Translations under genes and position numbers: made by a program
The notes under the pieces: model-generated
Told to the model about the DNA's origin: nothing
Databases searched by the model: none
What the model saw: only the letters and a program-made list of their open reading frames with translations
In this document: positions 4,385 to 60,500 of the stretch, piece after piece
Numbering within the stretch: the first letter of the stretch is position 1
How the letters are laid out: each line of letters starts with the position of its first letter
Assembly (NCBI GenBank): GCA_021209525.1
Contig: JAJOIF010000006.1
Span: 14,115 to 78,114 of the forward strand
Length of the DNA: 64,000 nt
Direction of reading: 5' to 3'
From: Minisyncoccota bacterium
Lineage (GTDB): Bacteria; Patescibacteriota; Minisyncoccia; Phycocordibacterales; UBA1006

Positions 4385-4454
4385 AAGAGAGGGGAAACAT
4401 CAAGTATCAAATTATAAATCCCAAATAAATTCCAAATTACAAATCTTAAAATAC

Positions 4455-4516: not shown

Positions 4517-4580
4517 TTCTTTGTATCTTGTATCTTGTATCTTGTATCTTGTATCTTGTATCTTGTATCTTGTATCTTGC
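4517..4580. repeat. tandem heptamer array (TCTTGTA, about 8 copies)
   Basis: Perfect 7-bp periodicity seen directly. Track ORFs 4477/4479 translate it as LYLVSCILYLVSC, which is an artefact. Confidence 0.9.
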
Positions 4581-4725
4581 TTTGCTCGCTGCAGTGAAGC
4601 GAAGGCGAGTATCTTTTCAATACCCTGCTCGTCCCAGCAGGTTCAGCGACGCGTTCTCCCTAAAAACTTGCATAAATTTTTATTCATTATATTATGCAAT
4701 AAAGATAACCTTAAAATATGTACAT

Positions 4726-5277
4726 ATGAATCCACACCTTTCTCCTGCAGATAGAAAACAGTTTTCTGTCTACTACAATAACACCTACAAACTTCTCTGT
4801 TCTGTTGCGCATAGATCTTATGCAAATATTTTACTGACTAATGGGCTAGAGGCAGAAGATATTGTTTCAATGACAATGATAAATGCTTTTGAGCACTTTC
4901 ATAATTTCAAAGAGACGACAGGTCCAAAAAATTTTTATACTTGGGTCTGTGTCATTATGAAAAACTTGGCAATTAATTTATTTCGCAAGAAAAAAATTGA
5001 ATACCATTTCGTTGAATGTATGCAGACACATGAACGGATGTGCACACATCCGACACATCAAAAAGACCACCTTGATTATCTTGAAAAAATAGATAGTTAT
5101 AATCAGGCGGCAACAGTACTAGAATGTTTATCTGAGCGTGATAAAAACATTATACTGCTGCGCGCTGACGAGTATTCATATCAAGAGATTATGTCTCTAT
5201 TAGGTCTTAAAGAAAGCGTAGTGAAAACGCGCCTAAATCGTGTGCGCACAAAAATCAAAGAAAAACTCTCCGGATAA
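4726..5277 (+). CDS. ECF-type RNA polymerase sigma-70 family factor
   Basis: Sigma-70 region 2-like segment (YTWVCVIMKNLAINLFRKKK) and region 4 HTH (YSYQEIMSLLGLKESVVKTRLNRVRTKIKEKL). ATG 4726 sits 8 nt after a TAAAAT -10 box. Confidence 0.65.
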   Translation: MNPHLSPADRKQFSVYYNNTYKLLCSVAHRSYANILLTNGLEAEDIVSMTMINAFEHFHNFKETTGPKNFYTWVCVIMKNLAINLFRKKKIEYHFVECMQTHERMCTHPTHQKDHLDYLEKIDSYNQAATVLECLSERDKNIILLRADEYSYQEIMSLLGLKESVVKTRLNRVRTKIKEKLSG

Positions 5278-7203: not shown

Positions 7204-7315
7204 GTAGATTAAGTTTTAGATGAACAAATATATAAATTCAAAATAGCATATTTCAGAAATATGTCAAGTTACACGATCTCGAATACTCAGCCTGATTGTA
7301 TGCTATACTCAATAC

Positions 7316-7393
7316 ATGAATAAAGGATTTACAAAATTATGGCTGCTTTTTGGGGTGCTCGTAGTGATTGCTATAGCGCTCTTGCTTGCATAA
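7316..7393 (+). CDS. possible 25-aa single-TM micropeptide
   Basis: ATG lies 6 nt after a TATACT -10 box (same cassette as many genes here); hydrophobic peptide MNKGFTKLWLLFGVLVVIAIALLLA. Confidence 0.3.
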   Translation: MNKGFTKLWLLFGVLVVIAIALLLA

Positions 7394-7882
7394 TTATTTC
7401 TCGAGCATTACAAAACTATAGGCAATGCCGTCAGGAGACACAAAGTCACCCTCTTTTGTTTCTTTGGTAAAGAGGTGTTCGTAAGGAGGGAAAAATGTAT
7501 CAGCCGGCTTGTCTCCGTGAATGAGGGTGAGGTGAAGTGTATCTGCATATGCAAGTCCTTCGGCATATACTGATGATCCGCCAATAATAAAAATTTCCTT
7601 ATCCAGAGACTGTGCATATGCAAGCGCCTCTGGCAATGAAGTGTATACACGCGCACCAGGTGCGTCATAGTGAGCCTGACCACTGAGGACAATATTTTCG
7701 CGATAGGGTAGGGGACGAAATGCATCAGGGAGTGATTCCCAAGTAGCGCGCCCCATAATCACTACTGTGTCTCTGGTTAAGTCGCGAAAGCGCTTCATAT
7801 CAGCAGGAATGTGATAAAGAAGGTCATTTTGGTAGCCAATGCCACGATCCTTTTTTTGAATTGCGGAAATAATGTGTATCAT
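7394..7882 (-). CDS. folA: dihydrofolate reductase
   Basis: DHFR motifs IISAIQKKDRGIGYQNDLLYHIPADMKRFRDLT, VIMGRATWESL, IIGGSSVY; internal Met start chosen. Confidence 0.85.
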   Translation of the reverse strand: MIHIISAIQKKDRGIGYQNDLLYHIPADMKRFRDLTRDTVVIMGRATWESLPDAFRPLPYRENIVLSGQAHYDAPGARVYTSLPEALAYAQSLDKEIFIIGGSSVYAEGLAYADTLHLTLIHGDKPADTFFPPYEHLFTKETKEGDFVSPDGIAYSFVMLEK

Positions 7883-7896
7883 ATATACTTCATTAT

Positions 7897-8397
7897 ATGT
7901 CAGAAACACATGAAAGCAACCATACCCGCCCTTCTTGGGATGAGTATTTTATCGAGATCATGGATGCCGTAGCAAAGCGAGCCACATGTGATCGTGGTCG
8001 CAGTGGATGTGTTATTGCTCGCGACAAGCGTATTGTAGCAACGGGATATGTTGGCGCGCCTGCTGGGTGCGCTCATTGTGATGAAGTGGGTCATGAAATG
8101 CATACAGTAACCCACGAAGATGGAACTCAAACACGTCACTGTATTCGTACCACACATGCTGAACAAAATGCCTTAGCGCATGCTGCGCGTGTTGGCGTTG
8201 CTCTTGAGGGGGCAACGCTGTATTGCAATATGACTCCATGTTATATATGTGCAAAAATGATTATTAATGCAGGTATTGTGCGTGTCGTCGCGCTCAAGGA
8301 TTATCATGCGAGTGCACGGAGTAAAGAGGTGTTTATTGAAGCGGGCGTGCTTTTTGAACTCTTGCACGAAGAAACGCAATCGTATGCAGATCAATAA
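7897..8397 (+). CDS. dCMP deaminase (ComEB-type)
   Basis: CMP/dCMP deaminase zinc motifs HAEQNA ... PCYICAKMI. Confidence 0.85.
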   Translation: MSETHESNHTRPSWDEYFIEIMDAVAKRATCDRGRSGCVIARDKRIVATGYVGAPAGCAHCDEVGHEMHTVTHEDGTQTRHCIRTTHAEQNALAHAARVGVALEGATLYCNMTPCYICAKMIINAGIVRVVALKDYHASARSKEVFIEAGVLFELLHEETQSYADQ

Positions 8398-8762: not shown

Positions 8763-9728
8763 TTACACTGCAATAGGTGCTTTGATAGCAGGGTGAGGAT
8801 TATAATCCTCAATACTGATATCATCAAAGGCAAAGTCTTCAAAATTCTTTACTTCTGGGTTCAGTACCAATCGTGGCATAGGGCGCGGGTCACGAGATAA
8901 TTGTTCGCGGGCTTGCTCGAGGTGATTACTGTACAGGTGAATATCACCACCTGTCCAGATAAAGTCACCTACTTCATGATCAGTTACGTGCGCAATCATT
9001 GCAGTCAAGAGTGCATATGATGCAATGTTAAAGGGAACACCCAGGAAAAAGTCAGCGCTTCGTTGGTAGAGCTGGCAAGAAAGCTTTCTCTTTTGAGTAC
9101 CTGGGATTGGTTCTGAATAAAATTGAAAGAGTGCGTGACATGGAGGAAGTCCAGATTTCTGCATTTCTTCAATTTGCCCAACATTCCATGCGGAAACAAT
9201 ATTTCTCCGAGAGTCAGGATTCTTCTTGAGTGTTTCAATAACTTGAGAAACTTGATCGATGTGTTCACCTGTAGGTGTTGGCCATGAGCGCCACTGATAT
9301 CCATACACGGGACCTAATTCGCCATACTGTTTTGCAAAATCAGGGTCTGTTGCAATTTTTTCTTCATATGCTGCGAGTAAGGCATTCCATGCATCACTAT
9401 TGGTTTCAGGAATAGCTTGATCGGTATCTTTCAAATATGCCTTGAAAGGCCATTCACTCCAAATACCGACTTTGTTTTGTATCAAGTATTCAATATTAGT
9501 GCTTCCTTGCAAGAACCAAATGAGCTCATGAGTAATAGAGCGCATAAATACTTTTTTGGTGGTGAGGAGCGGAAAACCTTGTGACAAGTCAAAACGCATT
9601 TGATGTCCAAAGACACTGCGCGTACCTGTTCCTGTGCGGTCGCCTTTGTCGACACCGTGATCAAGAATATGTTGCATTAATGAAAGGTATTCCTGGTCTG
9701 CATGTGAATGTGATGAATATGATTGCAT
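8763..9728 (-). CDS. thyA: thymidylate synthase (long form with ~50-aa insert)
   Basis: TS motifs [43 protein letters not shown]. Confidence 0.95.
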
Positions 9729-10312: not shown

Positions 10313-10957
10313 ATGACAAAAGTCGCAGACAAAACCTTAGCACAGTATGTTAAGTTCCAACACGATATGTTGGAGAGAGTCCTTAAAGGATCAGTTGACC
10401 CGATTGCATTAATGAACGCACAACGTCCATTAATCGGTCAAAAGGCTAATCCTTACCTCAGATTAATCTCAGGAGGTGAAACCGTAACGATTTCTACCTG
10501 CAAGGGTGGGAAGAATGCAAACATCTATCACGCCAAGAAAACATTTCCTGGATACATAGATCCTGATTTCAATAATTGCGGAATCAACCTACCTCAACCA
10601 GCAACCGAGAAAACTGATGTTGATGTATACGAAATGTATAACAAAAACGCAGATTTCAGAACATTGTTTGGTTCATTGAGTTCAGACCTAAAAAGTCTTG
10701 CTTTTGAATCTCAAGAGCAGATTGAAACTTTCTGTAAAGAAAACAAGCAGTGGTTACGCACAGACGGTTACGGAACTTTCTTCCTATTTACTGAAGAGGT
10801 AGATGGTGAAGAAAAATTCTTCATTGCGGACGTGGGCTTCAGCTCTGGTGGGCTGATGGTGTACGTGTTCCACTTGTCGAGTGACCGCGTGTGGGCTGCG
10901 AGCGCTGCCCATCGCATTGTGGTACCTGCTACAAAAACCTCGGATACTCAGAACTAG
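10313..10957 (+). CDS. hypothetical protein
   Basis: No family recognised. Lies in a 1.5-kb mostly non-coding gap in the thymidylate cluster; ATG 9 nt after a TAAAAT box. Confidence 0.5.
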   Translation: MTKVADKTLAQYVKFQHDMLERVLKGSVDPIALMNAQRPLIGQKANPYLRLISGGETVTISTCKGGKNANIYHAKKTFPGYIDPDFNNCGINLPQPATEKTDVDVYEMYNKNADFRTLFGSLSSDLKSLAFESQEQIETFCKENKQWLRTDGYGTFFLFTEEVDGEEKFFIADVGFSSGGLMVYVFHLSSDRVWAASAAHRIVVPATKTSDTQN

Positions 10958-11193
10958 ATTCTTAGATCCTTAATACCTTAGACCCTTTCTTTCAAAGAAG
11001 GGTCTTTTTTATTACTCCATCCATCTATGGTCTCGTCCTTGGCACGCTGAGTATCGTTAATCCCATATAACGCGTGCTAACAAGCCGGAGGTGGAGATTT
11101 TTGGGATTTGATGCTCAGGATTTGCTTGCGATGTGGAATTTTTAGCTTGTAATTTTATCATCTTATTGCATCACTCACGATTCAATAGTAAAT

Positions 11194-11230
11194 ATTTGCC
11201 TCACGTTCCTTTTTCCCCTATACTTACCCT
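11194..11230 (+). promoter_or_regulatory. promoter cassette: -35 TTGCCT, 17-nt spacer, -10 TATACT, then 7 nt, abutting the glyA ATG (leaderless)
   Basis: Seen directly; a near-identical 37-bp copy lies upstream of dut at 13912-13948. Confidence 0.55.
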
Positions 11231-12490
11231 ATGTCATATATTAAAGAACAAGATCTTGAAATATATCAAGCAATCCAAGGTGAAGAAAAACGCCAGCGAG
11301 AAGGACTTGAACTCATTCCGTCAGAAAATTATGTATCACGCGCTGTGCTTGAGGCTAATGGCTCAGTATTTACCAATAAATATTCAGAAGGGTATCCAGG
11401 GCGACGTTACTATGGTGGTCAAGAATATACAGATATTATTGAGCAAGTAGCAATAGATCGTGCATGCCAGTTATTCGGTGCCCGTTTTGCAAATGTGCAA
11501 CCACTCTCTGGTGCTCCTGCAAATCTTGCGCTCTATGCAGCACTTTTGGAGCCAGGAGATACGGTGCTTGGTATGGATTTGTCACATGGTGGACACTTGA
11601 CCCATGGACACCCGGTTACTTTCCCTGCAAAGATTTTTAACTTTGTGCGTTATGGCATGAAAAATATCGAGACAGGAGAAATTGACTATGAGGCACTTCG
11701 TGAAGTCGCTCTCCGTGAACAGCCAAAAATTATTCTCGCTGGTTTTTCTGCATATTCTCGTGAATTAGATTACAAAAAATTTGTAGACATTGCCCGCGAA
11801 GTAGGCGCCATTACTGTTGCTGACGTAGCCCATATTGCAGGGCTTATTGCAGGCAAGGCGCTCCGCAATCCATTTGATGATGGTTTTGATATTATGACCA
11901 CCACGACACATAAAACATTACGCGGCCCTCGTGGAGGTATGATTCTCGTGCGCGAAGACGAAGAACTTTTTAAAAAAATCAATAAGGCAGTTTTCCCTGG
12001 GCTGCAAGGCGGCCCCCATATGAATCATATAGCAGCCAAAGCTGTTGCATTTGGTGAAGCGCTCGATCCTTCTTTTCAAAAGTATGCTGCGCAGGTTATT
12101 AAAAATGCAGCTGCGATGGCAGACGTTTTTCACCATGAAGGTATTCGCATGATAGGTGGAGGAACATCAAATCACCTTATCTTGGCTGATGTATATGGGT
12201 CATTAGGTATTACAGGAAAAGAAGCTCAAACACTATTAGATGAAGTAGGAATCACGCTCAATATGAATAGCATTCCTGATGATGAACGCAAACCACTTGA
12301 TCCTTCAGGGATTCGTTTTGGTACACCAGCCATAACTACGCGTGGTTTTACTGAAAAAGAATGCGCGCGTGTGGCAGAGCTCATGATTGCTCTCTTGCGC
12401 AATAAAGATAATGCAGAACTCAAAGAGAGTATTACAGAAGAAGTACGTAATCTCGCAACCACATTTCCTGTGCCAGAGAGGTTTATCTAA
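11231..12490 (+). CDS. glyA: serine hydroxymethyltransferase
   Basis: SHMT motifs LIPSENYVSRAV, PLP-site TTTTHKTLRGPRGGMI. Confidence 0.95.
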   Translation: MSYIKEQDLEIYQAIQGEEKRQREGLELIPSENYVSRAVLEANGSVFTNKYSEGYPGRRYYGGQEYTDIIEQVAIDRACQLFGARFANVQPLSGAPANLALYAALLEPGDTVLGMDLSHGGHLTHGHPVTFPAKIFNFVRYGMKNIETGEIDYEALREVALREQPKIILAGFSAYSRELDYKKFVDIAREVGAITVADVAHIAGLIAGKALRNPFDDGFDIMTTTTHKTLRGPRGGMILVREDEELFKKINKAVFPGLQGGPHMNHIAAKAVAFGEALDPSFQKYAAQVIKNAAAMADVFHHEGIRMIGGGTSNHLILADVYGSLGITGKEAQTLLDEVGITLNMNSIPDDERKPLDPSGIRFGTPAITTRGFTEKECARVAELMIALLRNKDNAELKESITEEVRNLATTFPVPERFI

Positions 12491-12498
12491 GTCGTGCT

Positions 12499-12891
12499 AT
12501 GAAAATTGTTATTACACATGCAACCACATTTCCTTTTGAGCAAGAGCTCTATGCTCCACTGATGGCTGCTGATTTTTTTTCCGAACATGAATTTCTCTTG
12601 CCACAGCGCACGGGACTTGCGCAACAAATTACCGAAGATATGATTCGCACAGCAGATGTGGTCATTTGCGAAGTGTCATTACCTTCAACAGGGCAAGGGA
12701 TTGAAATAGGGTGGGCGACCGCACATAAAACACCTTGTGTGTGTATACACAAAAAAGACGCTCATATTTCAGGTGCACTACAGTATGTGTGCGATGTTAT
12801 TATTCCATATAGAGATACGCAGGATATGGTAGAGCAGGTGAGGAGGGTGTGTGGGGCAAGCACCAAGCACCAAACTCCAAATAACAAGTAA
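12499..12891 (+). CDS. nucleoside 2-deoxyribosyltransferase / DNPH1-like protein (putative)
   Basis: Short flavodoxin-like layout with ADVVICEVS...GQGIEIGWA resembling the NDT/Rcl fold; context is a thymidylate cluster. The last ~11 codons overlap a repeat-element TIR. Confidence 0.4.
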   Translation: MKIVITHATTFPFEQELYAPLMAADFFSEHEFLLPQRTGLAQQITEDMIRTADVVICEVSLPSTGQGIEIGWATAHKTPCVCIHKKDAHISGALQYVCDVIIPYRDTQDMVEQVRRVCGASTKHQTPNNK

Positions 12892-13139
12892 CCACCTCTT
12901 CTCCCTTCGTCCGCCGTAGCCTTGGCGAAGGCGGAGTGTTTCTTGTAAATGAGCTATTGGCATACGTACCACAAAGTCTGTAAGCGGTACCACAGCCGCG
13001 AGATCCCGGAATTTGTTCGCATGCTCACAAATTCCGGGAATGAGTGGTTGTTCGTATTTTCCGGGAAGGAGTGGTTATTTGTAATTTGCCTGCCTCGTTA
13101 TACGGGGTTGTATCTTGTTATTTGGCGCTTGGTGCTTAT
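12857..13139. mobile_element. MITE-like non-autonomous element (~283 bp) bounded by ~30-bp imperfect terminal inverted repeats (CAAGCACCAAGCACCAAA..AAATAACAAG)
   Basis: Left TIR 12857-12893 and right TIR 13105-13139 are reverse complements. Interior carries AATTCCGGGAA(T/G)GAGTGGTT direct repeats and the CCGTAGCCTTGGCGAAGGCGGAG module shared with other copies. Confidence 0.6.
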
Positions 13140-13185
13140 AACTTACATTCTACAAAAACAACCATATACATGCTATACTAAATCC

Positions 13186-13881
13186 ATGCAAGGAAAACTC
13201 ATAGTTATTGACGGCACCGATGGATCAGGCAAAGCAACACAGGTCGCCCACCTCAAAGAGCGATTAGTTGCCGAAGGGTATCAAGTCGCATCGCTTGATT
13301 TTCCACGATACGAAGACAACTTTTTTGGATCATTTATTGGTGAATGTTTGCGTGGTGATCATGGTGATTGGGCAGGACTCAGTCCACGTATCGCATCTGT
13401 GGTATATGCCGCCGATCGTTTTGAATCTGCAGAAACTATTCGCGCATGGCTCGCTGAGGGCAGGGTAGTCATCTTGGATCGCTATGTTTCTTCTAATCAA
13501 ATTCATCAAGGAGGTAAAATTACTGAGACCCATGAGCGCAAGGCATTTCTCACATGGCTCGATACTATGGAGCATGACATTTTTAAAATACCGAGACCAG
13601 ATATTATTATATATCTTGATGTACCACTTGCGGTGAGTCAGGCATTACTTTCCCAAAAAAATACACAAGATACCAAGACATATCTCGCTGGCAAAAAAGA
13701 TCAGCATGAAAATGACCTCGAACATCTCACTGCTGCCAAAGAAGCAGGACTTGCCCTTATTGCAGAAATGAATAATTGGCATCGTATTAACTGTGCACCT
13801 GAGGGCGAGCTTTTGTCTATAGAAGAGGTGCATGAGATGGTGTACGGGGTGTTAAGTGAAGGAGGGTATCTTGTCTCTTAG
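13186..13881 (+). CDS. tmk: thymidylate kinase
   Basis: P-loop IVIDGTDGSGKATQ, DRY motif (VILDRYVSSN). Internal ATG 13186 chosen; upstream part of the track ORF is repeat-element sequence. Confidence 0.9.
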   Translation: MQGKLIVIDGTDGSGKATQVAHLKERLVAEGYQVASLDFPRYEDNFFGSFIGECLRGDHGDWAGLSPRIASVVYAADRFESAETIRAWLAEGRVVILDRYVSSNQIHQGGKITETHERKAFLTWLDTMEHDIFKIPRPDIIIYLDVPLAVSQALLSQKNTQDTKTYLAGKKDQHENDLEHLTAAKEAGLALIAEMNNWHRINCAPEGELLSIEEVHEMVYGVLSEGGYLVS

Positions 13882-13911
13882 AAGTTACTTGTCCCGACCA
13901 GCGGAGCTCTC

Positions 13912-13948
13912 ATTTGCCTCACGCTTCTTTTTCCCCTATACTTACCCT
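13912..13948 (+). promoter_or_regulatory. promoter cassette (TTGCCT-17-TATACT-7-ATG) abutting the dut start; near-identical to the glyA copy
   Basis: 35 of 37 nt identical to 11194-11230. Confidence 0.55.
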
Positions 13949-14371
13949 ATGAAATTTCTTATCAAAAAATTACATCCTGATGCAAAGATGCCCACCTATG
14001 CCCATACTACTGATGCTGGCTTAGATATGTATGCATGCGAACGCGTCATTGTGCCGCCACATGGTCGCATGCGTATATATCACGGCTTTGCGCTCCTTAT
14101 TCCTCCGGGATATGCAGGCATTGTCAAAGACAAGAGTTCTGTGAGCAATGCGGGACTGCACCAAATTGGTGGCGTATTTGATGCGGGCTTTACTGGTGAA
14201 TATAATACACAGCTTGTTAATCTCACTGATACTGAATATGTTTTTGAAAAAGGCGACAAAGTCTCTCAGCTCGTCATTATTCCAATTGCGCAACCAGAAT
14301 TTGAGCATGTTGAGGTATTTCCTGAAACTGAAAGAGGGGAGGGTTCTTTTGGTTCAACGGGTAAGCAATAA
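13949..14371 (+). CDS. dut: dUTP diphosphatase
   Basis: dUTPase motifs AGLDMYA, RSS-like KSSVSN, GVFDAGFTGE; internal ATG 13949. Confidence 0.9.
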   Translation: MKFLIKKLHPDAKMPTYAHTTDAGLDMYACERVIVPPHGRMRIYHGFALLIPPGYAGIVKDKSSVSNAGLHQIGGVFDAGFTGEYNTQLVNLTDTEYVFEKGDKVSQLVIIPIAQPEFEHVEVFPETERGEGSFGSTGKQ

Positions 14372-14410
14372 TCATTGGCATAATGTATTTTTTTATGTAG
14401 TATAGTGATT

Positions 14411-16108
14411 ATGTATATTCATCATACCTTACAACGCTACATTGCGACAGCGCTCCGTGATTTTGATGTGCGTGAGCACGACATACACCTCGAGCATCCA
14501 GCTGATTTCATGCACGGCGATTATGCAATCAATAGCGCACTCATATATGCACGTAATAGAGGTATTGCTCCGCGCGAACTCGCTGAACAATTTGTACAAG
14601 AACTTACCAAAGATATGCCGGCATATCTTGAGCGTATTGAAATTGCAGGTCCTGGATTTATTAACCTTTTCCTCGCGCGTCCTTTTTTGCAATCAACCCT
14701 CGCTGATATTATTGCAGACAGTGTGCATTATGGACGCGGATCATTGCTCTCGGGCAAGCGCGTGCTCATTGAACACTCGAGCCCTAATCTCTTCAAGCCA
14801 TTTCATATTGGGCATATGATGAATAATGCTATTGGTGAATCATTAGTGCGCACTGCTGAATATGTAGGCGGCGATGTTATTGCGCTCTCGTATCCATCAG
14901 ATATTTCCCTCGGTATTGGCAAGGCAATTTGGTTTCTCTTGAGTAATGGTGGCAAGGAGGCACTTGCTGAGCGGGCGACACTCCATGAACAAATACTCTT
15001 GCTCGGTTCATGTTATGTGCAAGGAGTACGCGCATTTGATGACACGCCAGAGATTCAATCTGATGTCCGCGAAATTACGCGTCAGATTTTTGAACAAGAA
15101 CCAACTCCCGCATATGAGCTCTATACGCTCTGCAAGCAATTAAACATTGATTACTTTATTGCCATCACCAAGAGACTCGGTTCTCATTTCGCTGATTTTA
15201 TTTTTGAAAGTGAAGCAGGTGTGAGAGGGCAAGACATGGTACGCGCACATACACCGAGTGTCTTTCGGGTAAGTAATGGTGCACATATTTACGAAGGCGA
15301 ACAAGATGGGCTCCATACGCGTGTTTTCATTAATGCCGAAGGATATCCTACGTATGAAGCCAAAGATATTGGTCTTCTGGCCATAAAGTTTGAACGCTAT
15401 CAGCCTGATATTTCAGTACTCATTACCGACCATGAACAAAAAGAATACTATAAAGTCGTTTTAGCAGCTGCTGGAAATATTGCACCGGTGTGGCGTGATT
15501 GTTCTGTTCATGTGACACATGGACGCATGACGCTCCTTGGTCAAAAAATGTCATCACGCTTGGGCGGTGTACCAACAGCGGTTGAGCTGCTTGATACATT
15601 ACGCAGCGATGTATATGAAAAAAATACTGACGCATCAGATGATCTCGCTGATGCTATTGCACTTGCAGCAATAAAATTTACCATCCTCAAAACACAAGCA
15701 GGTAAAAATATTAATTTTGATCCTGATCAATCACTTTCTTTTGAAGGTGATTCTGGTCCATATCTACAATATACACATGCGCGCATTCAATCACTCCTCA
15801 CCAAAGGAGAGGGGATGGGTATACATCCGCGTATTGATGGAGCATTAAGCGAAGAAGTATTGCTCGAGCGTATGCTCTATAGATTTCCGCACATACTTGA
15901 GCGTGTCATTAAAGATTATTCGCCGCACCATCTCGCACACTATGCGTTGGAGGTAGCACGCGTCTTTAATAGTTGGTATGGTGGTACAAAAATTCTTGAC
16001 CCTGAAAATCCTCACGCTCCGTATTATCTTGGCTTGGCTCAAGCGACAGGTATTATTCTTGAGCGCAGTTTATACCTTTTAGGTATTCACGCACCAGAGA
16101 GGATGTAA
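14411..16108 (+). CDS. argS: arginine--tRNA ligase
   Basis: Class I HIGH motif (PFHIGHMMNNAIGE), DALR anticodon-binding C-terminus. ATG 14411 (7 nt after a TAGTAT box) preferred over GTG 14405. Confidence 0.9.
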   Translation: MYIHHTLQRYIATALRDFDVREHDIHLEHPADFMHGDYAINSALIYARNRGIAPRELAEQFVQELTKDMPAYLERIEIAGPGFINLFLARPFLQSTLADIIADSVHYGRGSLLSGKRVLIEHSSPNLFKPFHIGHMMNNAIGESLVRTAEYVGGDVIALSYPSDISLGIGKAIWFLLSNGGKEALAERATLHEQILLLGSCYVQGVRAFDDTPEIQSDVREITRQIFEQEPTPAYELYTLCKQLNIDYFIAITKRLGSHFADFIFESEAGVRGQDMVRAHTPSVFRVSNGAHIYEGEQDGLHTRVFINAEGYPTYEAKDIGLLAIKFERYQPDISVLITDHEQKEYYKVVLAAAGNIAPVWRDCSVHVTHGRMTLLGQKMSSRLGGVPTAVELLDTLRSDVYEKNTDASDDLADAIALAAIKFTILKTQAGKNINFDPDQSLSFEGDSGPYLQYTHARIQSLLTKGEGMGIHPRIDGALSEEVLLERMLYRFPHILERVIKDYSPHHLAHYALEVARVFNSWYGGTKILDPENPHAPYYLGLAQATGIILERSLYLLGIHAPERM

Positions 16109-16244: not shown

Positions 16245-17311
16245 ATGATAGAATTCTTAATACTCACTTTTGCCGTTATTATCGCATCAGGCATTTTTTC
16301 TGGAATTGAGGCCGCTCTCTTTTCAGTGTCACAAGCCCGTGCTCTCGTACTCAAAGAGCAGGGTATTGCCGGAGCAGACGCTCTCGTTACCCTCAAAACA
16401 AACCTCCAACAAGCAATTATCGTTATTGTTATTGGAAATAATATTGTAAATATTGCTGGATCTCTTTTTGTTGGGGTTGTGGCGGTGCGGCTTTTTGGAG
16501 ACCCGCTCATTGGACTCATTTCAGCCCTTTTAACACTTCTTATCATTATTTTTGGAGAAATCTTGCCAAAAACTATTGGTGAAAATAATGCAGAAAAATC
16601 AGCCTCGCTATTTCACGCCCGCTCACTGGACTTATCTTTATACTGAAGCCGCTCGTTATGTTGCTCGAGCAACTCACCAAGCGTTTTTCTACAGTACGCA
16701 AAATGGTTTCCGAAGAAGAGCTCTCTTTACTCTCAGAACTCGGACACCTCGAGGGAAGTATTGAAGAAGATGAGCGCGACATTATTCAGCGCGTCTTTAC
16801 GTTGAATGACATCACTGCATATGACATTATGACACCGCGCACTATGATGGTAGGGATTCACAAAGATACCGTGCTCGGTCACGCACGTGAAGAAATTTTT
16901 GAAATGTCTAATTCGCGTCTTCCGGTATATGGAGAAGATTATGATGACATTGTGGGTATGTGCTATATGCGCGATCTCTTGATTGCGCTCGCTCGTGATG
17001 AACACCAAAAGACTGTTTCTGATTATAGGAAAGACGTTCTCTATGTATCCGAAGATATGCGTGTTGATGATTTGCTCAGGTTATTCTTGTCTCGCCGAGG
17101 ACATATGGCTATTGTTAAAGATGAATTTGAAGGAACGAGTGGTCTCGTTACTCTTGAAGATGTCCTTGAACAACTCGTGGGAGAAATTGTTGATGAAACT
17201 GATGAGGTTGTAGATACACGCGAAGAAGCGAAACGCGAAGCCGAAGAGTCTGATTTGATTATTGAAGAATCAGAGGATAGGGAGGAAGAGGAAATTTCAA
17301 GTATCAAATAA
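16245..17311 (+). pseudogene. CNNM/CorC-HlyC family (DUF21 + 2xCBS + CorC_HlyC) transporter gene interrupted by a 1-nt frameshift near 16618-16625
   Basis: ORF 16245-16646 (DUF21 TM part) and ORF 16658-17311 (CBS pair + CorC_HlyC) read as one protein (..FHA-RPLTGLIFILKPLVMLLEQLTK..) if one base is restored in the CCC run at ~16619. Confidence 0.7.
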
Positions 17312-17354
17312 CAAATTCCAAGCCCATCAAACAGGGTGAGTGAGTAATAAATCC

Positions 17355-17866
17355 CAAGCACCAAATAACAAGATACAAACAAATTCCAATATAAAAAATA
17401 CAAAAATTACTCGACCTTCTTTATAATAGCAGAGAGAATGCGTCTAAGCGCTAAAGATTCCTCTTTCAGAGAATTGAGGAGTGCGCTGTTTCCTCCAGGA
17501 TCAACATGCAACAAAGAAAGCCAGTACTCTGTTTCGCGTGCTTCTCTGCGAGAGATTTTCATATATTTTTACATATCTTTTTTACTCAATCCTTCATTTG
17601 CTTCAATATAATTAGCCCCAATAGATGAGGATGAGCGAAGTAATTGCACATAGTATACTTTGTTAATAAATGTATTTTTGTTGGTAAAACATAATTACGA
17701 ACGTCTATTGCAAATCTTTGTGTGCGATCGATAAGGTCATATGTCATATGTGATCTAATATACACAAATTATATGAATATTAGATAAATTCAGTTTTGAG
17801 ATTCATATATTGATTCTTGGTATTTGTTTGGTATTTGTTATTTGGTGCTTGGTGCTTTTAAATTCC
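17355..17866. mobile_element. TIR-bounded element (~510 bp) of the CAAGCACCAAATAACAAG family carrying a decayed four-helix-bundle protein gene
   Basis: Left TIR 17355-17390 and inverted right TIR 17814-17866; an additional partial TIR at 17298-17324 overlaps the stop of the upstream gene. Confidence 0.55.
17407..17694 (-). pseudogene. four-helix-bundle (23S rRNA intervening-sequence type) protein, fragmented
   Basis: Minus-strand frames give ..VYYVQLLRSSSSIGANYIEANEGLSKKDM* followed by MKISRREARETEYWLSLLHVDPG.. (EYWL motif). Two frames, an internal stop and no N-terminal Met. Confidence 0.5.
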
Positions 17867-18576: not shown

Positions 18577-19125
18577 TTATTCAGTCTCGTCTTCTTTTTT
18601 GCGTGGACTTTTGTCTCGCTCAATGAGAAGATAAATACCTTTTGGGCTTTGTCTGAGATCTTCGACAATCTTATATGGTTCTGAAATAAAATCAAGTATC
18701 CGCTGCAAGCGTTCCTTTTGAAAGTCTTTGTCGGTGTATTTTGATCGTCCTCGCAAAAAGAGTTCAATTTTCACACGATTACCTTCTTGGAGCCACTTGG
18801 TTGCATTTTTTGCTTTGAGAGAAATATCATTTTCTCCCGTACCAATTTTGACTTGGAGGCTTTTGACTTCACCGCCGGTGCTTGTATTTGCTTTGATTTC
18901 TTTTTGTTTTTTCTTTTGATCGTATTGGAATTTTCCGTAGTCAATAATTTTTGCAACGGGTGGATTTGCATCCGGTGAAATTTCAATAAGGTCAAGACCG
19001 CGTTCTTGTGCGGCGGCGAGAGCGTCGCTCAGTGAGAGAACACCAAGGTTGCCTTCGTCGGAAATAACACGAAGTTCTCGTGCGCGAATACCTTCATTTA
19101 TTCTGATGTCTGTTTTCTTTGCCAA
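18577..19125 (-). CDS. infC: translation initiation factor IF-3
   Basis: IF3 N- and C-domains (INEGIRARELRVI..GLDLIEISPDANPPVAKIIDYGKFQY; conserved infC-rpmI-rplT order). Confidence 0.95.
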   Translation of the reverse strand: MAKKTDIRINEGIRARELRVISDEGNLGVLSLSDALAAAQERGLDLIEISPDANPPVAKIIDYGKFQYDQKKKQKEIKANTSTGGEVKSLQVKIGTGENDISLKAKNATKWLQEGNRVKIELFLRGRSKYTDKDFQKERLQRILDFISEPYKIVEDLRQSPKGIYLLIERDKSPRKKEDETE

Positions 19126-19777
19126 AGTATTGTTGTGTTTTTATGCTTAAAATCTTTAAAAACGTTATTGAGTATACTGATTTTCATTAAAAAAGCAAGT
19201 CGTTGGGTGCATATATGCTTATTATTTGCACCGCCAACCCAATCTGACCCCGTCTGACGATATTGATGGGGTAAGCGAGGCAGATTCGTATTTTCTGGAA
19301 ATAAGTGGTTTTTCTAAGCCTTTTTCTTTTTTAAGCAAAAAAGAAAAACAAAAGCTTCTCGAGGAACGCATTTTCTCTTAAAAATATTGCTCGTATTCTG
19401 TAATAGCAAGACTCGCTAGCGCTCAAACAGTTGCTATTACGACGAATACTCGCGTCATTTTTATATCTAAAATACGTGACCTCGAGGATGAAACATAGCG
19501 TCTATGTTTTTATGGTAAATACAAAATTTGTGTCTTGTATCTTGTTTTGCCTCGTCTGATGAGGCTTTGCTCGACTCGACACGCTCACTCCACTAAGCGG
19601 GGTTCAGCGTGTTGTAGCGAAGTGAAGGAGAGTATCTTGCTTGCCATGTTTGACGCGGTATCTTGTCATTTGCGCGCCTCTTATCATATTGCCAAGCTTG
19701 GCATATGAGGTACAAGGAAACGTGCGGGTGAGCCATGCACCTTGCATTTATGCCTCTTGCTGCGTAGGATAAGACAT

Positions 19778-26977: not shown

Positions 26978-27245
26978 AAAAGAAGACACACAAAAACCAC
27001 TCATATGAGTGGTTTTTGTGTGTATGATCTATATATGATTTGCAAAGAGTATTTTTCTGTGATAGTATGTATATACAACTGAATATGATTATAAAGATGT
27101 AGCAAGAGTACTGGCTCTATGACCTACAGGCAACCCTCATTATGAGAAGGTGCCCCATCCAGCCAACACAGTAATGTGTATGGAAAGATAAGAATAGTCC
27201 TTCTGTCTTTCTCATTATTATGAGATTTTTTTTATTATATTTTCT

Positions 27246-42633: not shown

Positions 42634-43299
42634 ATGAAAGCACTCATTGTTGAGGACGAGCCAAAAATTGCTCAATTTATTCAAAAAAGCCTACAATCAG
42701 AATATTTTGTCGTTGATTGTGCGCCCGATGGCGAAAAAGGGTCGTATTTAGCGCGCTTGCATGATTATGACATTATTATTCTTGATAATATGTTGCCGTA
42801 CAAAACAGGTCTTGAAGTATGCAAAGAAATTAGAAATTTCGGCAAGAATACACCTATTATTGTATTGTCTGTGCAAACTGAAGTAAATCAACGAATAACA
42901 TTATTAAATGCGGGGGCTGATGATTATCTCATGAAGCCCTTTTCGTTTGAAGAATTACATGCACGCATGCGCGCACTCTTGCGCAGACCTCAGCATGTGA
43001 GTAGCGATGATCTCGTGCTTGATACACTCGTGCTCAATCTTGATGCGCATACAGTACGTAGGGGAGAACACGAAGTACATCTCACACGCAAAGAATTTAT
43101 GCTCTTGTATTATCTCATGAAGCATCGTGGTAATGTATTATCACGCGGGACGATTATGGAGCATGTGTGGGATATGAATGCCGATCCATTTTCAAATACT
43201 ATTGAATCCCATATTTTGTCACTTCGCAAGAAAATTAACATTGAAGGACATCGCAAGCTCATTACTACTGTTTCAGGGAGAGGGTATAAGATTGAGTAG
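42634..43299 (+). CDS. OmpR-family response regulator (no cognate kinase adjacent)
   Basis: Receiver domain (ALIVEDEP...IIILDNMLP...K) plus winged-helix output (RGYKIE end). Confidence 0.85.
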   Translation: MKALIVEDEPKIAQFIQKSLQSEYFVVDCAPDGEKGSYLARLHDYDIIILDNMLPYKTGLEVCKEIRNFGKNTPIIVLSVQTEVNQRITLLNAGADDYLMKPFSFEELHARMRALLRRPQHVSSDDLVLDTLVLNLDAHTVRRGEHEVHLTRKEFMLLYYLMKHRGNVLSRGTIMEHVWDMNADPFSNTIESHILSLRKKINIEGHRKLITTVSGRGYKIE

Positions 43300-43306
43300 A
43301 GGCAGG

Positions 43307-43605
43307 CAAGCACCAAAAACCAAACAAATTACAACCCTGCTCAGCGAGACAAGAAACAAATAACCGCTCATTCCCGGAATACGCGAGGAAACGAGCGTAT
43401 GTCCGGGATCTCGTGTCTTGTTAATGAGTGCGCAACATAAGTGCCACTGAAACGAGACCCCGGACATTTTCTCCGTTAGCACTCCGAAAATTCCGGGGAA
43501 GAGGTGGTGGATCACAAATTCCGGGGAAGAAGTGATGATTCTTGAGATTTGTATTACTCGCCGTAGCGAAGCGAAGGAGAGGAATTTGGAATTTGGTGCT
43601 TGGTC
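43307..43605. mobile_element. MITE-like element (~299 bp), same family as 12857-13139
   Basis: Left end CAAGCACCAAAAACCAAACAAATT, right end reverse complement of GACCAAGCACCAAATTCCAAATTC. Interior has ATTCCGGGAA/AAATTCCGGGGAAGA direct repeats, a 13-bp-stem hairpin (ATGTCCGGGATCTCG...CGAGACCCCGGACAT) and the CCGTAGCGAAGCGAAGGAGAG module. Confidence 0.55.
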
Positions 43606-43666
43606 GGTCACCTCCCATATGCTATACTAAAATCATCACTTATTAGGTATTAACGAGTATTTTTAT

Positions 43667-45831: not shown

Positions 45832-47628
45832 TTACCCCTTACGATTCACTTTTTTGCGATCGCTTTCTTTGAGGAATTCTTTGCGGAGGCGAATCGCATC
45901 AGGAGTTACTTCCAAATATTCATCATCGCCCATCATACCGAGACCGCGTTCCAGAGTCATTTCATATGGCGGCAAGAGGCGAATTGCTTCGTCAGTTCCA
46001 GAGGCGCGCATATTGGTGAGTTGTTTTCCTTTGGTTGGATTCACCATCATTTCATCTCCTTTTGATGAGTAACCAATCACTTGCCCTTCATACACTTCAG
46101 TATTCGGCTCAATATAGAGTACGCCGCGTTTTTGGAGACCTCCCAAAGCAAAAGCAAGTGCTTTGCCAGTAGCCATAGAAATCATAGAACCAAATTCACT
46201 TTTTTCAATAGCACCTACATAAGGCATGAATGAGTGAAATACGCTCGTCAAAATTCCTTCACCTTTGGTGTCAATAATAAATTCATTACGATATCCCATG
46301 AGTCCGCGTGTAGGTACATGGAATACAAGACGCACGCCAGCTTGATCGGGTTTCATTTCTTGCATCATTCCTTTGCGGCGACTCAATTTATCAATAACCG
46401 TTCCAGAAAATTCATCAGGTACGAGAATGGTGACTTCTTCAAATGGTTCAGATTTCACACCATCAATGTCTTTAACGATAACTTCTGGTTGTGAGACAGC
46501 TACTTCAAAACCTTCACGGCGCATATTTTCAAGAAGCACGGCAAGGTGCAATTCACCGCGTCCGTAAATTTTGAATTTTGCTTGATCAGAAAAATCAATA
46601 CGGAGCCCTACGTTTACTTCGAGTTCTTTTTCAAGACGTTCGCGAATTTGTCGTGAGGTGAGCAATTTTCCAACACGTCCCGCAAATGGTGAGTCATTGA
46701 CGAACATAGAGAGGGAAATAGTGGGTTCATCAATAGTAATTTCAGGCAAGACATCTACAGCGTCATTGGTGCTCACGGTTTGACCGATGTAAATATCAGG
46801 GAGGCCAGAAATCATCACAATATCACCTGCATGTGCCGTGTCTACAGCGATGCGACTCAGTCCTTCAAAGGTGAAGAGTTTGGTAATTTTCCCAGTAAAT
46901 GTTTCATGGGTGTGACTGCGCACGGTAACAGTTTGCCCGTCTTTGATGCTTCCTTGGTAGATGCGCATAATACCGAGACGCCCCAAGAAATTATCATATG
47001 CCAAGTTGAATACTTGTGCTTGGAGGTTTTCTGGCTCAGTGCTCGCATGTGCTGCATTAGGAGTATGTTCTAAAATGAGATCAAGGAGCGGATCTAGATT
47101 TTTCATATTTCCAATTTCATTTTTGTCTCGTGTTGCAGTTCCGGCAAGTCCAATAGCATAGACAATAGGGAAGTCGAGCTGTTCGTCATTTGCGCCGAGA
47201 TCAAAAAAGAGTTCATAAATTGCAGATTCAGTAGCATCAAGATCTGCTGCTGGTTTGTCAATTTTATTCATCACCACCATAGGGCGTAGTCCGAGCTCGA
47301 GAGATTTCTTGAGTACGAATTTGGTTTGGGGCATAGGACCCTCTGCGGCATCAACAATGAGACACACTGAATCAACAGAGCGCAATACGCGCTCTACTTC
47401 TGATCCAAAGTCGGCGTGACCTGGTGTGTCGAGAATATTAATTTTGGTGCCCTTGTACAAAACGCTTGTATTTTTTGCATAAATGGTAATACCTCGTTCT
47501 TTTTCAAGATCATTAGAGTCCATAGAGACTCCTTTGGTTACCATTCCTGTTTGTTCAAGGAGTGAGTCGGTTAATGTTGTTTTTCCATGGTCAACATGGG
47601 CAATAATTGCAATATTTCTAATTTCCAT
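45832..47628 (-). CDS. typA: translational GTPase TypA/BipA
   Basis: G1 [10 protein letters not shown]3 DTPGHADF, G4 NKID; EF-G-like domains. Confidence 0.95.
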
Positions 47629-47683
47629 AACGTTCGTACAATACTATATATTAAGCAATAAAGCAAAAGATAAGCAAATAATA

Positions 47684-50799: not shown

Positions 50800-50860
50800 A
50801 CATATTCAGTATAGCATAACTATGTGCACCTAATATATTTTTGTATTATACTAGAAACAT

Positions 50861-57077: not shown

Positions 57078-57547
57078 AAGGCAGCCCTTTCTTTGCACAC
57101 TCATTCTGAATACTATTATTAATCATTAGTATATAGAATTAAATGAATAAAGGAGCGAAAGCGACTATTATGAATTTATGCAAAGCAAGCGTACGGCAAA
57201 GAAAGGATATCGGGTTTCAGCAGAGATCAAACAACAAATTATCAGTAGAATTAAGACGGTGTTTTTTATGGATAATCCTTGCCTTGATGACTCATATGAC
57301 GTATGATAGTTCGTATGAGCGTTTGAGAGGCTATCATCCTCGAGCTTTGGGAAGAACGTGCAGATTTCTGCATCAGTAGAACCTGACGGTGTCTTGCGTC
57401 CGTTATCGCACAAAGAAGTGTTCTTGGATATTCTTGTCCAAGAAAAACAAGGTGGTACCGCGGGGAAACTCGTCCTTGTAGAGCGCAATGCGCTGTATCA
57501 AGGGCGAGTTTTTTTATTTTTTCTTTATCAGTAATACGTATACTTGT

Positions 57548-60500
57548 ATGTCTATGTCACCAGAATCACTTACCAAAAAATCATCATATGCCGAGCGCGA
57601 AGAGCGTATTCTCGCATTTTGGGAAGATCAAAAAATTTTTCAAAAAACACTTACCAAAAAAGCTCCTTTGGGCGATTTTATATTTTATGAAGGACCGCCT
57701 ACCGCTAATGGGCGGCCAGGTATTCATCACCTTGCATCTCGTGCCTTCAAAGATGCTTTTCCTCGCTACAAAACAATGCGAGGATATTATGTGCGCCGCA
57801 AAGGAGGATGGGATACGCACGGTCTTCCGGTGGAGCTTGAGGTTGAAAAACAACTTGGCCTTGCCTCTAAAAAAGACATTGAATCATATGGCATTGAGGC
57901 ATTTAATCATGCATGTCGTCAGTCAGTATGGACATACCTTAATGAATGGCAAGATTTCACCAAGCGTATTGGGTACTGGCTTGATATGGATCATCCGTAT
58001 ATTACTTATGATGAAAAATATGTAGAATCGCTCTGGTGGGTAATGAAGCAAATTGCTGATAAAAATCTCCTCTACAAAGACTACAAAATTGTGCCATGGT
58101 GCCCTCGTTGTGGTACAGGACTCTCAAGTCATGAACTTGCCCAAGGATATGCTGATGTCAAAGATATTTCTATTATTGCAAAATTCAAAGTCAGCAATCA
58201 CACGTATGATCGTGATACCTATATTCTCGCATGGACAACAACACCATGGACATTACCAGGCAATGTCGCCCTTGCTGTTGGTGCATCTATTACCTATGCG
58301 CGCATTTTGTGTGATGGTGTATATTATGTAGTCGCTCAGGATCTTGTGACCAAAGTATTCCATGGTCGCGAATATGCCGTTGTAGATACATGTATGGGAG
58401 ATGATTTGGCGGGGATGACTTATGAACCACTTTTCCCGTACATGCAATACGCACATGCGCGTGAGCCTATTCCTCATATGGAAAATGCATATGCTGTATA
58501 TGCTGCAGATTTTGTCACTACCGGAGATGGTACAGGGGTGGTGCACACAGCGGTTATGTATGGTCAAGACGACTTTGAATTAGGAAACAAGGTTTCTTTG
58601 CCTAAATTTCACATCATTCATCCAGATGGTGCATTCAAAGAAGATATGGGTGTACTCTCTGGTCGCTTTATCAAAGAAATGATAGATGGCAAACCGACAC
58701 TTGATATTGATATTATCAAACATCTCCAAGAAACCGACACTTTTTTTGCAAAAGAAAAATACGACCACAATTATCCGCATTGTTGGCGCTGTAAAACACC
58801 ACTCGTGTATTATGCGCGAGATTCGTGGTACATCAATATGCAAGATGTCAAAGCCGATCTCATTGCAGAGAATCAATCTATTGCATGGCATCCAGAATAT
58901 GTAGGGCAAGGGCGTTTTGGTGAATGGCTCCAAGAGCTCAAAGACTGGGCTATTTCTCGTGAGCGCTACTGGGGTACACCATTACCGCTCTGGCAATCAC
59001 CAGATGGCGACATGTGGGCTGTTGGTGGTTTTGATGACATCTACCGCCACGCAGAACCATCAGTACTTACCAAAATGATAATCATGCGCCACGCAGAAAG
59101 TGAAAAAAACATAGCTGATGTGTGGGATGCATCTGACGACACGTACCCGCTCACTGCAACAGGGCGCGCTCAAGCACAAGCATGTGCTCAGAAACTGAAA
59201 GATGCAGGTATTGATATTATTGTGGCTTCGCCAGTGCGTCGCACACGAGAAACCGCAGAAATTATTGCGCGCGAAATTGGTGCAACTATGCACATAGAAG
59301 AAGCCTTGCGCGAAATTGATTCGGGTAATTGGGAAGGAAAAACATATGCCGAAGTCAAAGAGAGTCGTGATGCATATAATGCGCTTGATTCAGATGCATT
59401 TCATCACGCAATTCGCGGAGATCATGGCGAGAGTTGGCAAACATTTGATGAGCGTGTGAGTGCGTGGTATCGTGATGTGTGTACGCGTTATGCAGGCAAA
59501 ACTATTTTAGTAGTGAGCCACTTTGCAAATCTTGTATATATTTTCAAGAATTATAAAAATATTTCTCACACCGAAGCATCGCGACTATTCACCAAGCCTG
59601 ATTTTGGTGTATATGTAGTACCAACAACACTCTATATTGATCAGCGCACAGGGTATGCTTTTGACCCGCATCGTCCATTTGTAGATACCATCACCCTTGC
59701 TCGCGAAGGAAAAACATATACGCGTGTGCCAGAAGTCATCGATGTGTGGTTTGACTCGGGTGCTATGCCTTTTGCGCAAGATCATTACATGGGCGAAGGT
59801 AGCTTTAGTTATCCTGCAGATGTCATTGCCGAAGGAATGGATCAAACCCGTGGGTGGTTCTACACCTTGCACGCTATTGGAAACTTGCTTGGATATGGCA
59901 AGGCATATAAAAATGTCATCAGTCTGGGGCTTATTAATGATGCGCAAGGACAAAAAATGTCAAAGTCAAAAGGGAATACCGTCAATCCATGGGATGCCAT
60001 GAATACGTTTGGAGTAGATACCATCCGTTTTTGGATGTATTCAGTGAGCGGCCCTGGTGATGCAAAGAGTTTTGATGAAAAGACAATTCTTGAAACACAA
60101 CGCAAAGTATTTGGTCTCCTTGATAATGTGGTTCATTTTTACGAATTATATCGTGCTTCGTATGATGCATCATATATTCCTCAAGAATCTCCGCATATTC
60201 TCGATCAGTGGATCCTCGCGCGACTTCATTATGTTGTAGCGACTATGACGCATCACATGGATGCATATCGCATCCTTGAATCAACACGGCTCGTGCGTGA
60301 CTTTATTGCAGATCTCTCGCAATGGTATATTCGCCGCAGTCGTGACCGCTTCAAAGAAACAGGTCGTGATATGTACTTTGCTTTGGCGACAACCCAGTAT
60401 GTACTCGATACACTTGCAAGGCTTATGGCACCTTTTGCACCATTCTTTGCCGAAGATATGTACCAACGTATTGAAGGTGCAGAAATATCAGTGCATATGG

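Follow-up and report, generated by a model that had tools for sequence, protein, structure and literature searches.

Why would two unrelated genes of one bacterium carry nearly the same 37 bp directly in front of their start codons, and what kind of message would be made from such a promoter? The question is raised by glyA, encoding serine hydroxymethyltransferase (SHMT), and dut, encoding dUTPase, which lie 2.7 kb apart in a stretch of 64,000 nucleotides from a Minisyncoccota bacterium (GenBank assembly GCA_021209525.1, contig JAJOIF010000006.1, positions 14,115 to 78,114; hereafter the window, numbered from its first letter). An earlier note on this DNA had described the two upstream segments as a shared promoter cassette, had listed twelve further genes with a -10 box shortly before the ATG, and had proposed widespread leaderless translation. 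We analysed the 64-kb window together with ~20 kb of flanking sequence, ~84 kb of the genome in all, and compared it with related assemblies. The best explanation of the whole, to which we give a probability of about 0.7, would be a leaderless core-promoter cassette that has been reused and that forms part of a window-wide pattern of genes without Shine-Dalgarno (SD) sequences.

The twin cassette at glyA and dut

Positions 11194-11230 read ATTTGCCTCACGTTCCTTTTTCCCCTATACTTACCCT, then ATG, and positions 13912-13948 read ATTTGCCTCACGCTTCTTTTTCCCCTATACTTACCCT, then ATG. Direct reading and comparison confirm the previously reported identity at 35 of 37 positions (38/40 if the ATG is counted), with both differences in the spacer. 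The TTGCCT, the spacer of exactly 17 nt and the TATACT described before are present in both copies, and a promoter scan likewise called each as TTGCCT-17-TATACT, with 9 of 12 positions agreeing with the sigma-70 consensus. The similarity is sharply bordered: compared position by position, it sets in at ATTTGCC and ends at the ATG, and the flanks on both sides are unrelated. SHMT and dUTPase are themselves non-paralogous and show no similarity past the ATG. A pattern search of the window with up to 3 mismatches returns exactly two copies, against none in 100 shuffles, and no third copy was found in the window or the adjoining contig (~84 kb in total) with as many as 10 substitutions allowed. 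Other, independent assemblies of this population contain the two copies as well (L024 and L025; for the dut copy, L026-L029 too), and contig JAJOJW010000010.1 of the metagenome-assembled genome (MAG) GCA_021208345.1 matches the window at 99.9% identity. Given its presence in independent assemblies, the pair is no assembly artefact.

In both cassettes the gap between TATACT and ATG is 6 nt, a pyrimidine-rich discriminator (TACCCT). Counted from the -10 box, the 7th base is the A of the start codon; the distance of 7 nt given earlier is correct for that base, though not for the gap itself. According to Kuo et al. 2025 (PMC12641261), a pyrimidine-purine-pyrimidine (YRY) motif whose centre lies 7 bp beyond the -10 box coincides in E. 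coli with the transcription start in 93% of cases. A T-A-T is centred at this very distance in both cassettes, and the only other purine of the discriminator is at its position 2; both thus have a pyrimidine-flanked purine 7-8 bp after the -10 box, the start base of sigma-70 promoters by the rule taken from PMC12641261. With the A of the start codon at this position and inside the T-A-T start motif, a leaderless mRNA with a 5'-terminal AUG is expected. The evidence supports both cassettes as predicted sigma-70-type core promoters abutting the ATG, and the ATGs at 11231 and 13949 as the predicted transcription starts of glyA and dut. That these two ATGs are the start codons is backed by N-termini which relatives share (Table 1).

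Other functions were considered for the cassette. A cis-regulatory RNA is ruled out by the lack of an Rfam match and of a significant fold: over 10950-14450 no family reaches the gathering threshold or E<=1, bar one chance microRNA match, and the z-scores of the two folds are -0.6 and -0.9. The T5 run is not a terminator tail, since no hairpin precedes it. A CCCTAT direct repeat with 11 bp spacing inside the cassette is lost in the relative L030 (see below) and was taken as coincidence.

The dut genes of relatives at 94%, 80% and 79% identity all have the order TTGnnn, 17 nt, TATACT, 6 nt, ATG, and in the 80% and 79% relatives the spacer and discriminator are unrelated to those of the window. 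The glyA genes of relatives at 83-90% identity have a -10 box 6-9 nt before the ATG (TATAAT or TATACT in those at 83-84%), and in L039 and L040 the glyA -10 box has a TGn extension and follows immediately after a terminator hairpin. The cassette itself is limited to the species of the window and one relative, L030 (GlyA 90% identical); relatives at 84% GlyA identity or less do not have it. Its exact core has no match in 185,579 species representatives of GTDB, nor its spacer plus -10 part in JGI metagenomes. A degenerate version of the core gave 3 matches, about the chance number, on unrelated contigs (45-56% GC) and before unrelated open reading frames (ORFs).

The intergenic DNA of the window and L030 can be aligned only in the last ~45 nt before the starts of tmk and dut. 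The dut copy of L030 agrees with the window's dut copy at 30/37 positions and its glyA copy with the window's glyA copy at 27/37; the latter retains only the downstream half, CTTTTTCC-AT-TATACT-TACCCT, its -35 half having been replaced by a TATCTTG repeat that gives TTGTAT at 17 nt. Just 5' of the -10 box, both L030 copies have CCAT, while both window copies have CCCC. Given this shared CC-to-AT change, and given that the paralogues are more alike than the orthologues, we conclude that the pair predates the species split and evolves in concert. Behind the concerted evolution there could be either conversion inside a tract of 40 bp or selection that keeps both copies fitted to one partner. The repeat that replaces the glyA -35 half in L030 is also found in the intergenic DNA of the window as a 7-nt tandem repeat, (TTGTATC)n, with ~9 copies before the extracytoplasmic function (ECF) sigma gene (4521-4585) and further runs at 19528-19550 and 13857-13875.

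Predicted start-proximal promoters and SD absence across the window

For the window as a whole, starts were set at the first ATG of each ORF, and the 53 genes preceded by 45 nt or more of intergenic DNA were taken as first in their transcription units. A TAnnnT hexamer ending 6-9 nt before the ATG is found at 30 of 71 starts (42%, gaps 6-9 summed) against ~7% at 2,945 other ATGs, with a positional peak at gaps 7-8. Comparison of this spacing with shuffled sequence, which had been proposed as a check on the leaderless reading, gives a significant enrichment in the window: 24 of the 53 first-in-unit genes have the hexamer at 6-9 nt, compared with 9.6±2.7 in 2,000 shuffles (maximum 22). For the strict form TAnA[ACT]T, the count is 18/53, against 0-7 in seven control windows further upstream. 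The affected share of the 53 transcription units is hence 34% (strict) to 45% (TAnnnT), and the 20-kb flanks hold further examples. All twelve of the additional genes listed in the earlier note have the -10 box as described, and for those genes the numbers it gave are the true gaps.

The hexamers near starts, 35 in number, have promoter-like surroundings. Their gaps to the ATG are 5 nt in one case, 6 nt in six, 7 nt in seven, 8 nt in twelve, 9 nt in seven and 10 nt in two. TTG lies 16-18 nt upstream of 12/35 (34%, against 7.9% of all such hexamers in the window, p 8e-6), with the spacer peaking at exactly 17 nt; a TGn extension is present at 8/35 (23% versus 6.8%, p 0.002); and the base at -1 is a pyrimidine in 33/35. 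A T precedes the ATG at 51 of 70 predicted starts (73% versus 29.5% at other ATGs, p 1e-13); the corresponding value is 65% in relatives with 80-90% identical GlyA, and 25% in more distant loci of the candidate phyla radiation (CPR). This bias fits the YRY transcription start motif for leaderless genes, while leaving the operon-internal starts unexplained. An orphan extended -10 box, TGcTATACT, stands 6 nt before the ATG at 7316 (window 7300-7393) and heads a 25-codon ORF, MNKGFTKLWLLFGVLVVIAIALLLA, whose product is possibly a single-helix membrane micropeptide.

SD sequences are absent. None of the 70 starts in the window has an SD 5-mer, and of two 4-mers neither is genuine, one belonging to the false start at 12949 and the other lying inside the TAGGAT -10 box of truB; nor do the 15 listed operon-internal starts have one. 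This rate is at or below background, compared with 75% for a Staphylococcus control locus in the same analysis, and it bears out the lack of SD sequences reported before for the cassettes. A positional -10 signal and little use of SD are likewise seen in loci of other CPR lineages, with more SD in Saccharibacteria. The gene for initiation factor 3 (IF3), infC (18577-19125, minus strand), has no in-frame ATG in its ORF, and its longest start is a TTG. In other bacteria infC has an unusual autoregulatory start codon, and IF3 discriminates against leaderless mRNAs in E. coli.

Some genes are simply too close together for conventional leaders. The ATGs of folA and the dCMP deaminase gene are 14 nt apart, each promoter being embedded in the opposite gene: TTGCGG (7861-7866), a 17-nt spacer, TATACT (7884-7889) and a 7-nt gap for the deaminase on the plus strand, and TTGCTT (7919-7914), a 16-nt spacer, TATAAT (7897-7892) and a 9-nt gap for folA on the minus strand. 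Binding of RNA polymerase at the two should be mutually exclusive. The gap of this divergent pair is 2 nt in the relatives L032 and L034; in L041 the partner of folA is a dCTP deaminase-like gene, at a distance of 28 nt. Given the spacing of the ATGs here, at the back-to-back pair in the 61-nt intergenic region listed in Table 1, and at gene 61694 (TGaTATACT-8-ATG, only 14 nt from recO), conventional leaders do not fit at these places.

Two of the listed genes are different. The TATTAT assigned to metK (27233-27238) is the end of a terminator T-tract, and with a SAM-I riboswitch and its own terminator upstream (Table 1), metK is not leaderless as had been supposed. For ileS, TATACT (57533-57538) does lie 9 nt before the second ATG (57554), which gene callers and relatives concur is the real start, the first in-frame ATG (57488) falling inside a terminator; the leaderless part of that claim fails, as a T-box leader lies upstream. 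Given the riboswitch and the T-box, both genes are leadered, and the hexamers in front of their start codons could be secondary promoters at most. Located past the riboswitch terminators, these may be constitutive leaderless promoters that bypass the riboswitch, or chance matches. The ileS product (57554-61000, 1148 aa) contains a complete His_Phos_1 domain (Pfam, E 5e-41; residues 531-699 of the 1170-aa ORF). This histidine-phosphatase domain is inserted between the two parts of the class I catalytic domain, and relatives have the same architecture (L034, 15882-end; L046, 5861-9307). A literature search found no paper that has isoleucyl-tRNA synthetase and histidine phosphatase together.

Widespread leaderless translation, as put forward in the earlier note, is therefore upheld in so far as the geometry is enriched, SD sequences are absent and the arrangement is kept in relatives; it applies to ~35-45% of the units rather than to all, and not to the leadered metK and ileS.

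Table 1. Features of the window discussed in the text.
Feature	Position	Strand	Details
Crossing divergent promoters, folA / dCMP deaminase	7861..7919	both	folA ATG 7882-7880 (-); dCMP deaminase ATG 7897 (+)
thyA, thymidylate synthase	8763..9728	-	TAAAAT 8 nt before ATG; without cassette
Cassette copy 1, predicted glyA core promoter	11194..11230	+	-35 TTGCCT 11196-11201; 17-nt spacer 11202-11218; -10 TATACT 11219-11224; discriminator TACCCT 11225-11230
glyA, SHMT, 419 aa	11231..12490	+	Pfam; N-terminus MS(Y/H/N)I kept in relatives; no in-frame start upstream
Nucleoside 2-deoxyribosyltransferase-like gene (ndt-like)	12499..12891	+	Pfam match just below curated cut-off; 8 nt past glyA stop; no SD, no -10 box
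tmk promoter, extended -10 TGcTATACT	13171..13185	+	TG 13171-13172; TATACT 13174-13179; 6-nt gap; kept in L030
tmk, dTMP kinase, 231 aa	13186..13881	+	True start ATG 13186 (N-terminus MQGKLIVIDG, shared with L030) rather than 12949, where the longer ORF begins
Cassette copy 2, predicted dut core promoter	13912..13948	+	-35 TTGCCT 13914-13919; 17-nt spacer; -10 TATACT 13937-13942; discriminator TACCCT 13943-13948
dut, dUTPase, 140 aa	13949..14371	+	Pfam; N-terminus MK(F/I/C)LI kept in relatives; upstream in-frame GTG extension from 13856 not conserved
argS promoter-like site	14375..14410	+	TTGGCA-17-TAGTAT, 7 nt, ATG 14411; occupies the whole 39-nt gap after dut
SAM-I riboswitch and terminator before metK	27086..27245	+	Riboswitch 27086-27194, above Rfam threshold; hairpin and T8 run 27210-27233; metK ATG 27246
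Two back-to-back TATACT-8-ATG promoters	50800..50860 (61-nt intergenic)	both	For 50401-50799 (-) and 50861-51088 (+)
T-box leader and terminator before ileS	57313..57553	+	T-box 57313-57480, E 1.2e-11, below Rfam cut-off, GGUGGUACCGCG motif present; terminator ~57470-57516

The intergenic DNA has repeats of its own. Elements of ~270-500 nt at 12850-13140, 17340-17860 and 43295-43612, with related ends at 4385-4430 and 17287-17321, are bounded by the inverted arms CCAAGCACCAAA..ACAAG and CTTGT..TTTGGTGCTTGG; two of them have the internal hairpin motifs GAGATCCCGGA / AAATTCCGGG in common, and one fills the gap from the ndt-like gene to tmk, between the two cassettes. These elements may be repeats resembling miniature inverted-repeat transposable elements, or structured RNAs. 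A 55-nt repeat occurs three times, at ~100 nt spacing, at 47626-47877, directly upstream of the minus-strand gene 45832-47628. In the window the ECF sigma gene (4726-5277) is whole, encoding 183 aa with regions 2 and 4, but it is split or shortened in sister assemblies (L024/L045). Most of the differences between the window and L024 are small indels, 12 of them in 18 kb, a pattern suggestive of assembly errors of the homopolymer type or of genuine frameshift polymorphism.

Weighing the explanations of the cassette

In the explanation that we prefer, RNA polymerase would start at the A of the ATG, within a T-A-T start element placed by the cassette, and glyA (probably together with the ndt-like gene, which is probably co-transcribed with it) and dut would give leaderless mRNAs, the AUG at their 5' end being recognised without an SD. 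The two cassettes would be paralogous copies of one promoter that arose before the split from the closest sampled relative and that have since stayed alike through gene conversion or because matched output was selected for. The cassette would then be one instance of a pattern in which, for ~35-45% of transcription units, the promoter reaches right up to the start codon. Sequence statistics and the comparison with relatives give the leaderless reading good support; that transcription starts at the A, that translation is leaderless and why the copies are similar is what we infer from them, and co-regulation of glyA and dut is plausible.

Several observations weigh against this explanation. In the local 3.6 kb, a generic -35/-10 scan gives no enrichment (9 hits, with 9.2 expected); such a scan is uninformative alone, and hence the promoter calls were based on where a hexamer lies with respect to the ATG. 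The commonest gap is 8 nt, so that some transcripts may start 1-2 nt before the ATG and not on it. The T at -1 is also found at 13/15 operon-internal starts and is thus no specific mark of transcription starts. Among the 14 listed genes, metK and ileS are clearly leadered, and both still lack an SD. Finally, a gene conversion tract of 40 bp is at the lower limit for normal homologous recombination.

What the copies mean for their genes is a separate matter. A copy could have been made by promoter capture or as a putative mobile promoter, in which case shared ancestry and occasional gene conversion would account for the pair, with no meaning for the pathway. We consider such neutral reuse possible, if somewhat unlikely. 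Thousands of highly similar promoter pairs are known before unrelated prokaryotic genes (PMC3575422), the cassette is confined to one species and one close relative, and the window has other look-alikes, namely TATACTAGAAACATATG at 48118 and 50861 and ATGCTATACTnnATnCATG, which occurs four times. Yet the pair is older than the L030 split, and with paralogues at 38/40 against orthologues at 30/37 (dut) and 27/37 (glyA) an active homogenising force is needed; the copies have no transposon ends or target duplications; and the genes involved are exactly the two that supply ThyA with its substrates. As regards the look-alikes themselves, TATACTAGAAACATATG is identical at 48104-48120 and 50847-50863, before an ion-channel gene and a 75-aa ORF, and ATGCTATACTnnATnCAT(G) is present four times in the window, at 3570, 7300, 13170 and 43619.

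Dut makes dUMP and GlyA makes 5,10-methylene-tetrahydrofolate (methylene-THF), the two substrates of ThyA. The assignment of glyA and dut to the thymidylate pathway is thus correct, and the link is tighter than had been claimed, as both genes feed ThyA and both lie in a conserved cluster. In the window this cluster comprises folA, the dCMP deaminase gene, a MazG-like gene, thyA, glyA, the ndt-like gene, tmk, dut and argS, and most of it (folA, dCMP/dCTP deaminase, thyA, glyA, tmk, argS) recurs in relatives. The other promoters of the pathway, those of thyA, folA, dCMP deaminase and tmk, do not have the cassette.

These relations invite the proposal that the spacer and discriminator of the cassette are the operator of a putative transcription factor that co-regulates the supply of dUMP and methylene-THF to ThyA, a reading which is compatible with a leaderless promoter and adds regulation to it, and which we nevertheless regard as unlikely. 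It would explain why the near-identity spans the 17-nt spacer and the discriminator, neither of which is constrained by RNA polymerase, why the CC-to-AT change is parallel in both L030 copies, why two ThyA-substrate genes of a conserved dTMP cluster are concerned, and why the borders of the repeat are exactly those of the promoter, with no longer duplicated tract. Against it, the cassette contains no palindrome or conserved direct repeat, it is missing from the four pathway promoters just named, its spacers are unrelated in relatives at 79-84% identity, no conserved regulator gene adjoins it, there is no third copy in ~84 kb, and the -35 half of the L030 glyA copy differs. The 214-aa ORF at 10313-10957 was considered as a neighbouring regulator and rejected: it has no Pfam match, its NCBIfam match to a PHB depolymerase-family esterase is far below threshold (E 0.038; 13.5 bits, where the cut-off is 108), and the genes that relatives have at the same place, PaaX-like in L032 or of 191 aa, bear no relation to it.

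A very improbable reading takes the TAnnnT hexamers not as promoters, but as an AU-rich, non-SD ribosome-binding or standby signal on leadered mRNAs, as in genomes of the Bacteroidetes type (group B). The hexamer does stand 7-9 nt before the ATGs of metK and ileS, which are certainly leadered, T at -1 is common to operon-internal starts, and leadered messages without an SD need some other signal. However, a ribosome would have no need of the -35 TTG at 17±1 nt and the TGn that are enriched by the hexamers; divergent ATGs only 14 and 61 nt apart have a hexamer each; in relatives the hexamer comes right after an intrinsic terminator; and the consensus TATACT/TATAAT, with T1, A2 and T6 invariant, is that of a Pribnow box.

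We give least credence of all to a nucleotide-sensing switch by choice of start, in which ATP at the A could give a translatable 5'-AUG mRNA and CTP or UTP at the pyrimidines 1-2 nt upstream, the sole start bases that the discriminator has just ahead of the A, a message with a short leader, poorly translated by an SD-free ribosome of the leaderless type, so that output would track the purine/pyrimidine nucleoside triphosphate balance without a protein regulator; if true, it would explain the identical spacer and discriminator at both genes, as a leaderless analogue of the start-site switching by which pyrC and pyrD are controlled in E. coli.

Relation to known systems and significance

The leaderless promoters proposed here have their closest counterpart in the group C genomes of GeneMarkS-2, in which a Pribnow box lies 6-8 nt from the gene start in 25-50% of operons, and which are frequent in Actinobacteria and Deinococcus-Thermus, e.g. 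Mycobacterium tuberculosis, Corynebacterium glutamicum, Streptomyces and Deinococcus deserti (PMC6028130). As in that group, a Pribnow box stands 6-9 nt before the first genes of ~35-45% of the units, with the ATG at the predicted transcription start. Unlike that group, the window belongs to Patescibacteria/CPR (Paceibacteria-like) at ~42% GC, and its promoters are often embedded in neighbouring coding sequence; furthermore, the remaining genes of group C use SD sequences, whereas in the window these are absent even at operon-internal and riboswitch-led genes. As to its place in the lineage, the best relatives of GlyA among GTDB representatives are Patescibacteria MAGs at 66-75% identity, and a record with 100% identical GlyA carries the NCBI label 'Candidatus Pacebacteria'.

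The anti-SD motif is missing from about half of Parcubacteria, members of the same broad lineage (Tsurumaki et al. 2022, PMC9297842), and its loss would predict mRNAs without SD sequences, such as those of the window. That work concerns rRNA and ribosomal proteins and leaves translation start open, whereas the window presents the mRNA side, with promoters abutting the ATG. The cassette is also akin to putative mobile promoters, being 95% identical DNA before two non-homologous genes with dissimilar coding parts. In the screen that defined them (Matus-Garcia, Nijveen & van Passel 2012, PMC3575422), two upstream regions had to share 80% identity or more along 50 nt or more within -150 to -50; the cassette falls outside it, as it covers 40 nt only, at -37 to +3, with unrelated flanks, and would for this reason have been invisible to that screen. 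With respect to the Y-1 R+1 Y+2 start element of PMC12641261, the difference is that R+1 and Y+2 are here the first two bases of the start codon, and that model does not explain why the bias for T at -1 extends to operon-internal genes. In the open-access literature, no paper was found that links leaderless expression with CPR, Patescibacteria, Parcubacteria, Saccharibacteria or Peribacteria.

Taken together, our verdict is that the window probably represents a leaderless, group C-type genome in Patescibacteria, with ordinary promoter reuse in addition. The CPR/Patescibacteria make up a large share of bacterial diversity, and their translation start is poorly understood; for one SD-free CPR lineage, the window offers a testable account, in which promoters would be fused to start codons. 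Gene-start prediction in CPR MAGs is affected, as callers mis-set some of the starts here, e.g. in the long ORFs at 12949 and 57488, and the arrangement is also relevant to the design of expression tools for the few cultivable CPR. The twin cassette would be a small case of promoter reuse with concerted evolution inside one pathway. Finally, where no 5' untranslated region exists, control of expression must act at the promoter or by way of the riboswitch-led exceptions.

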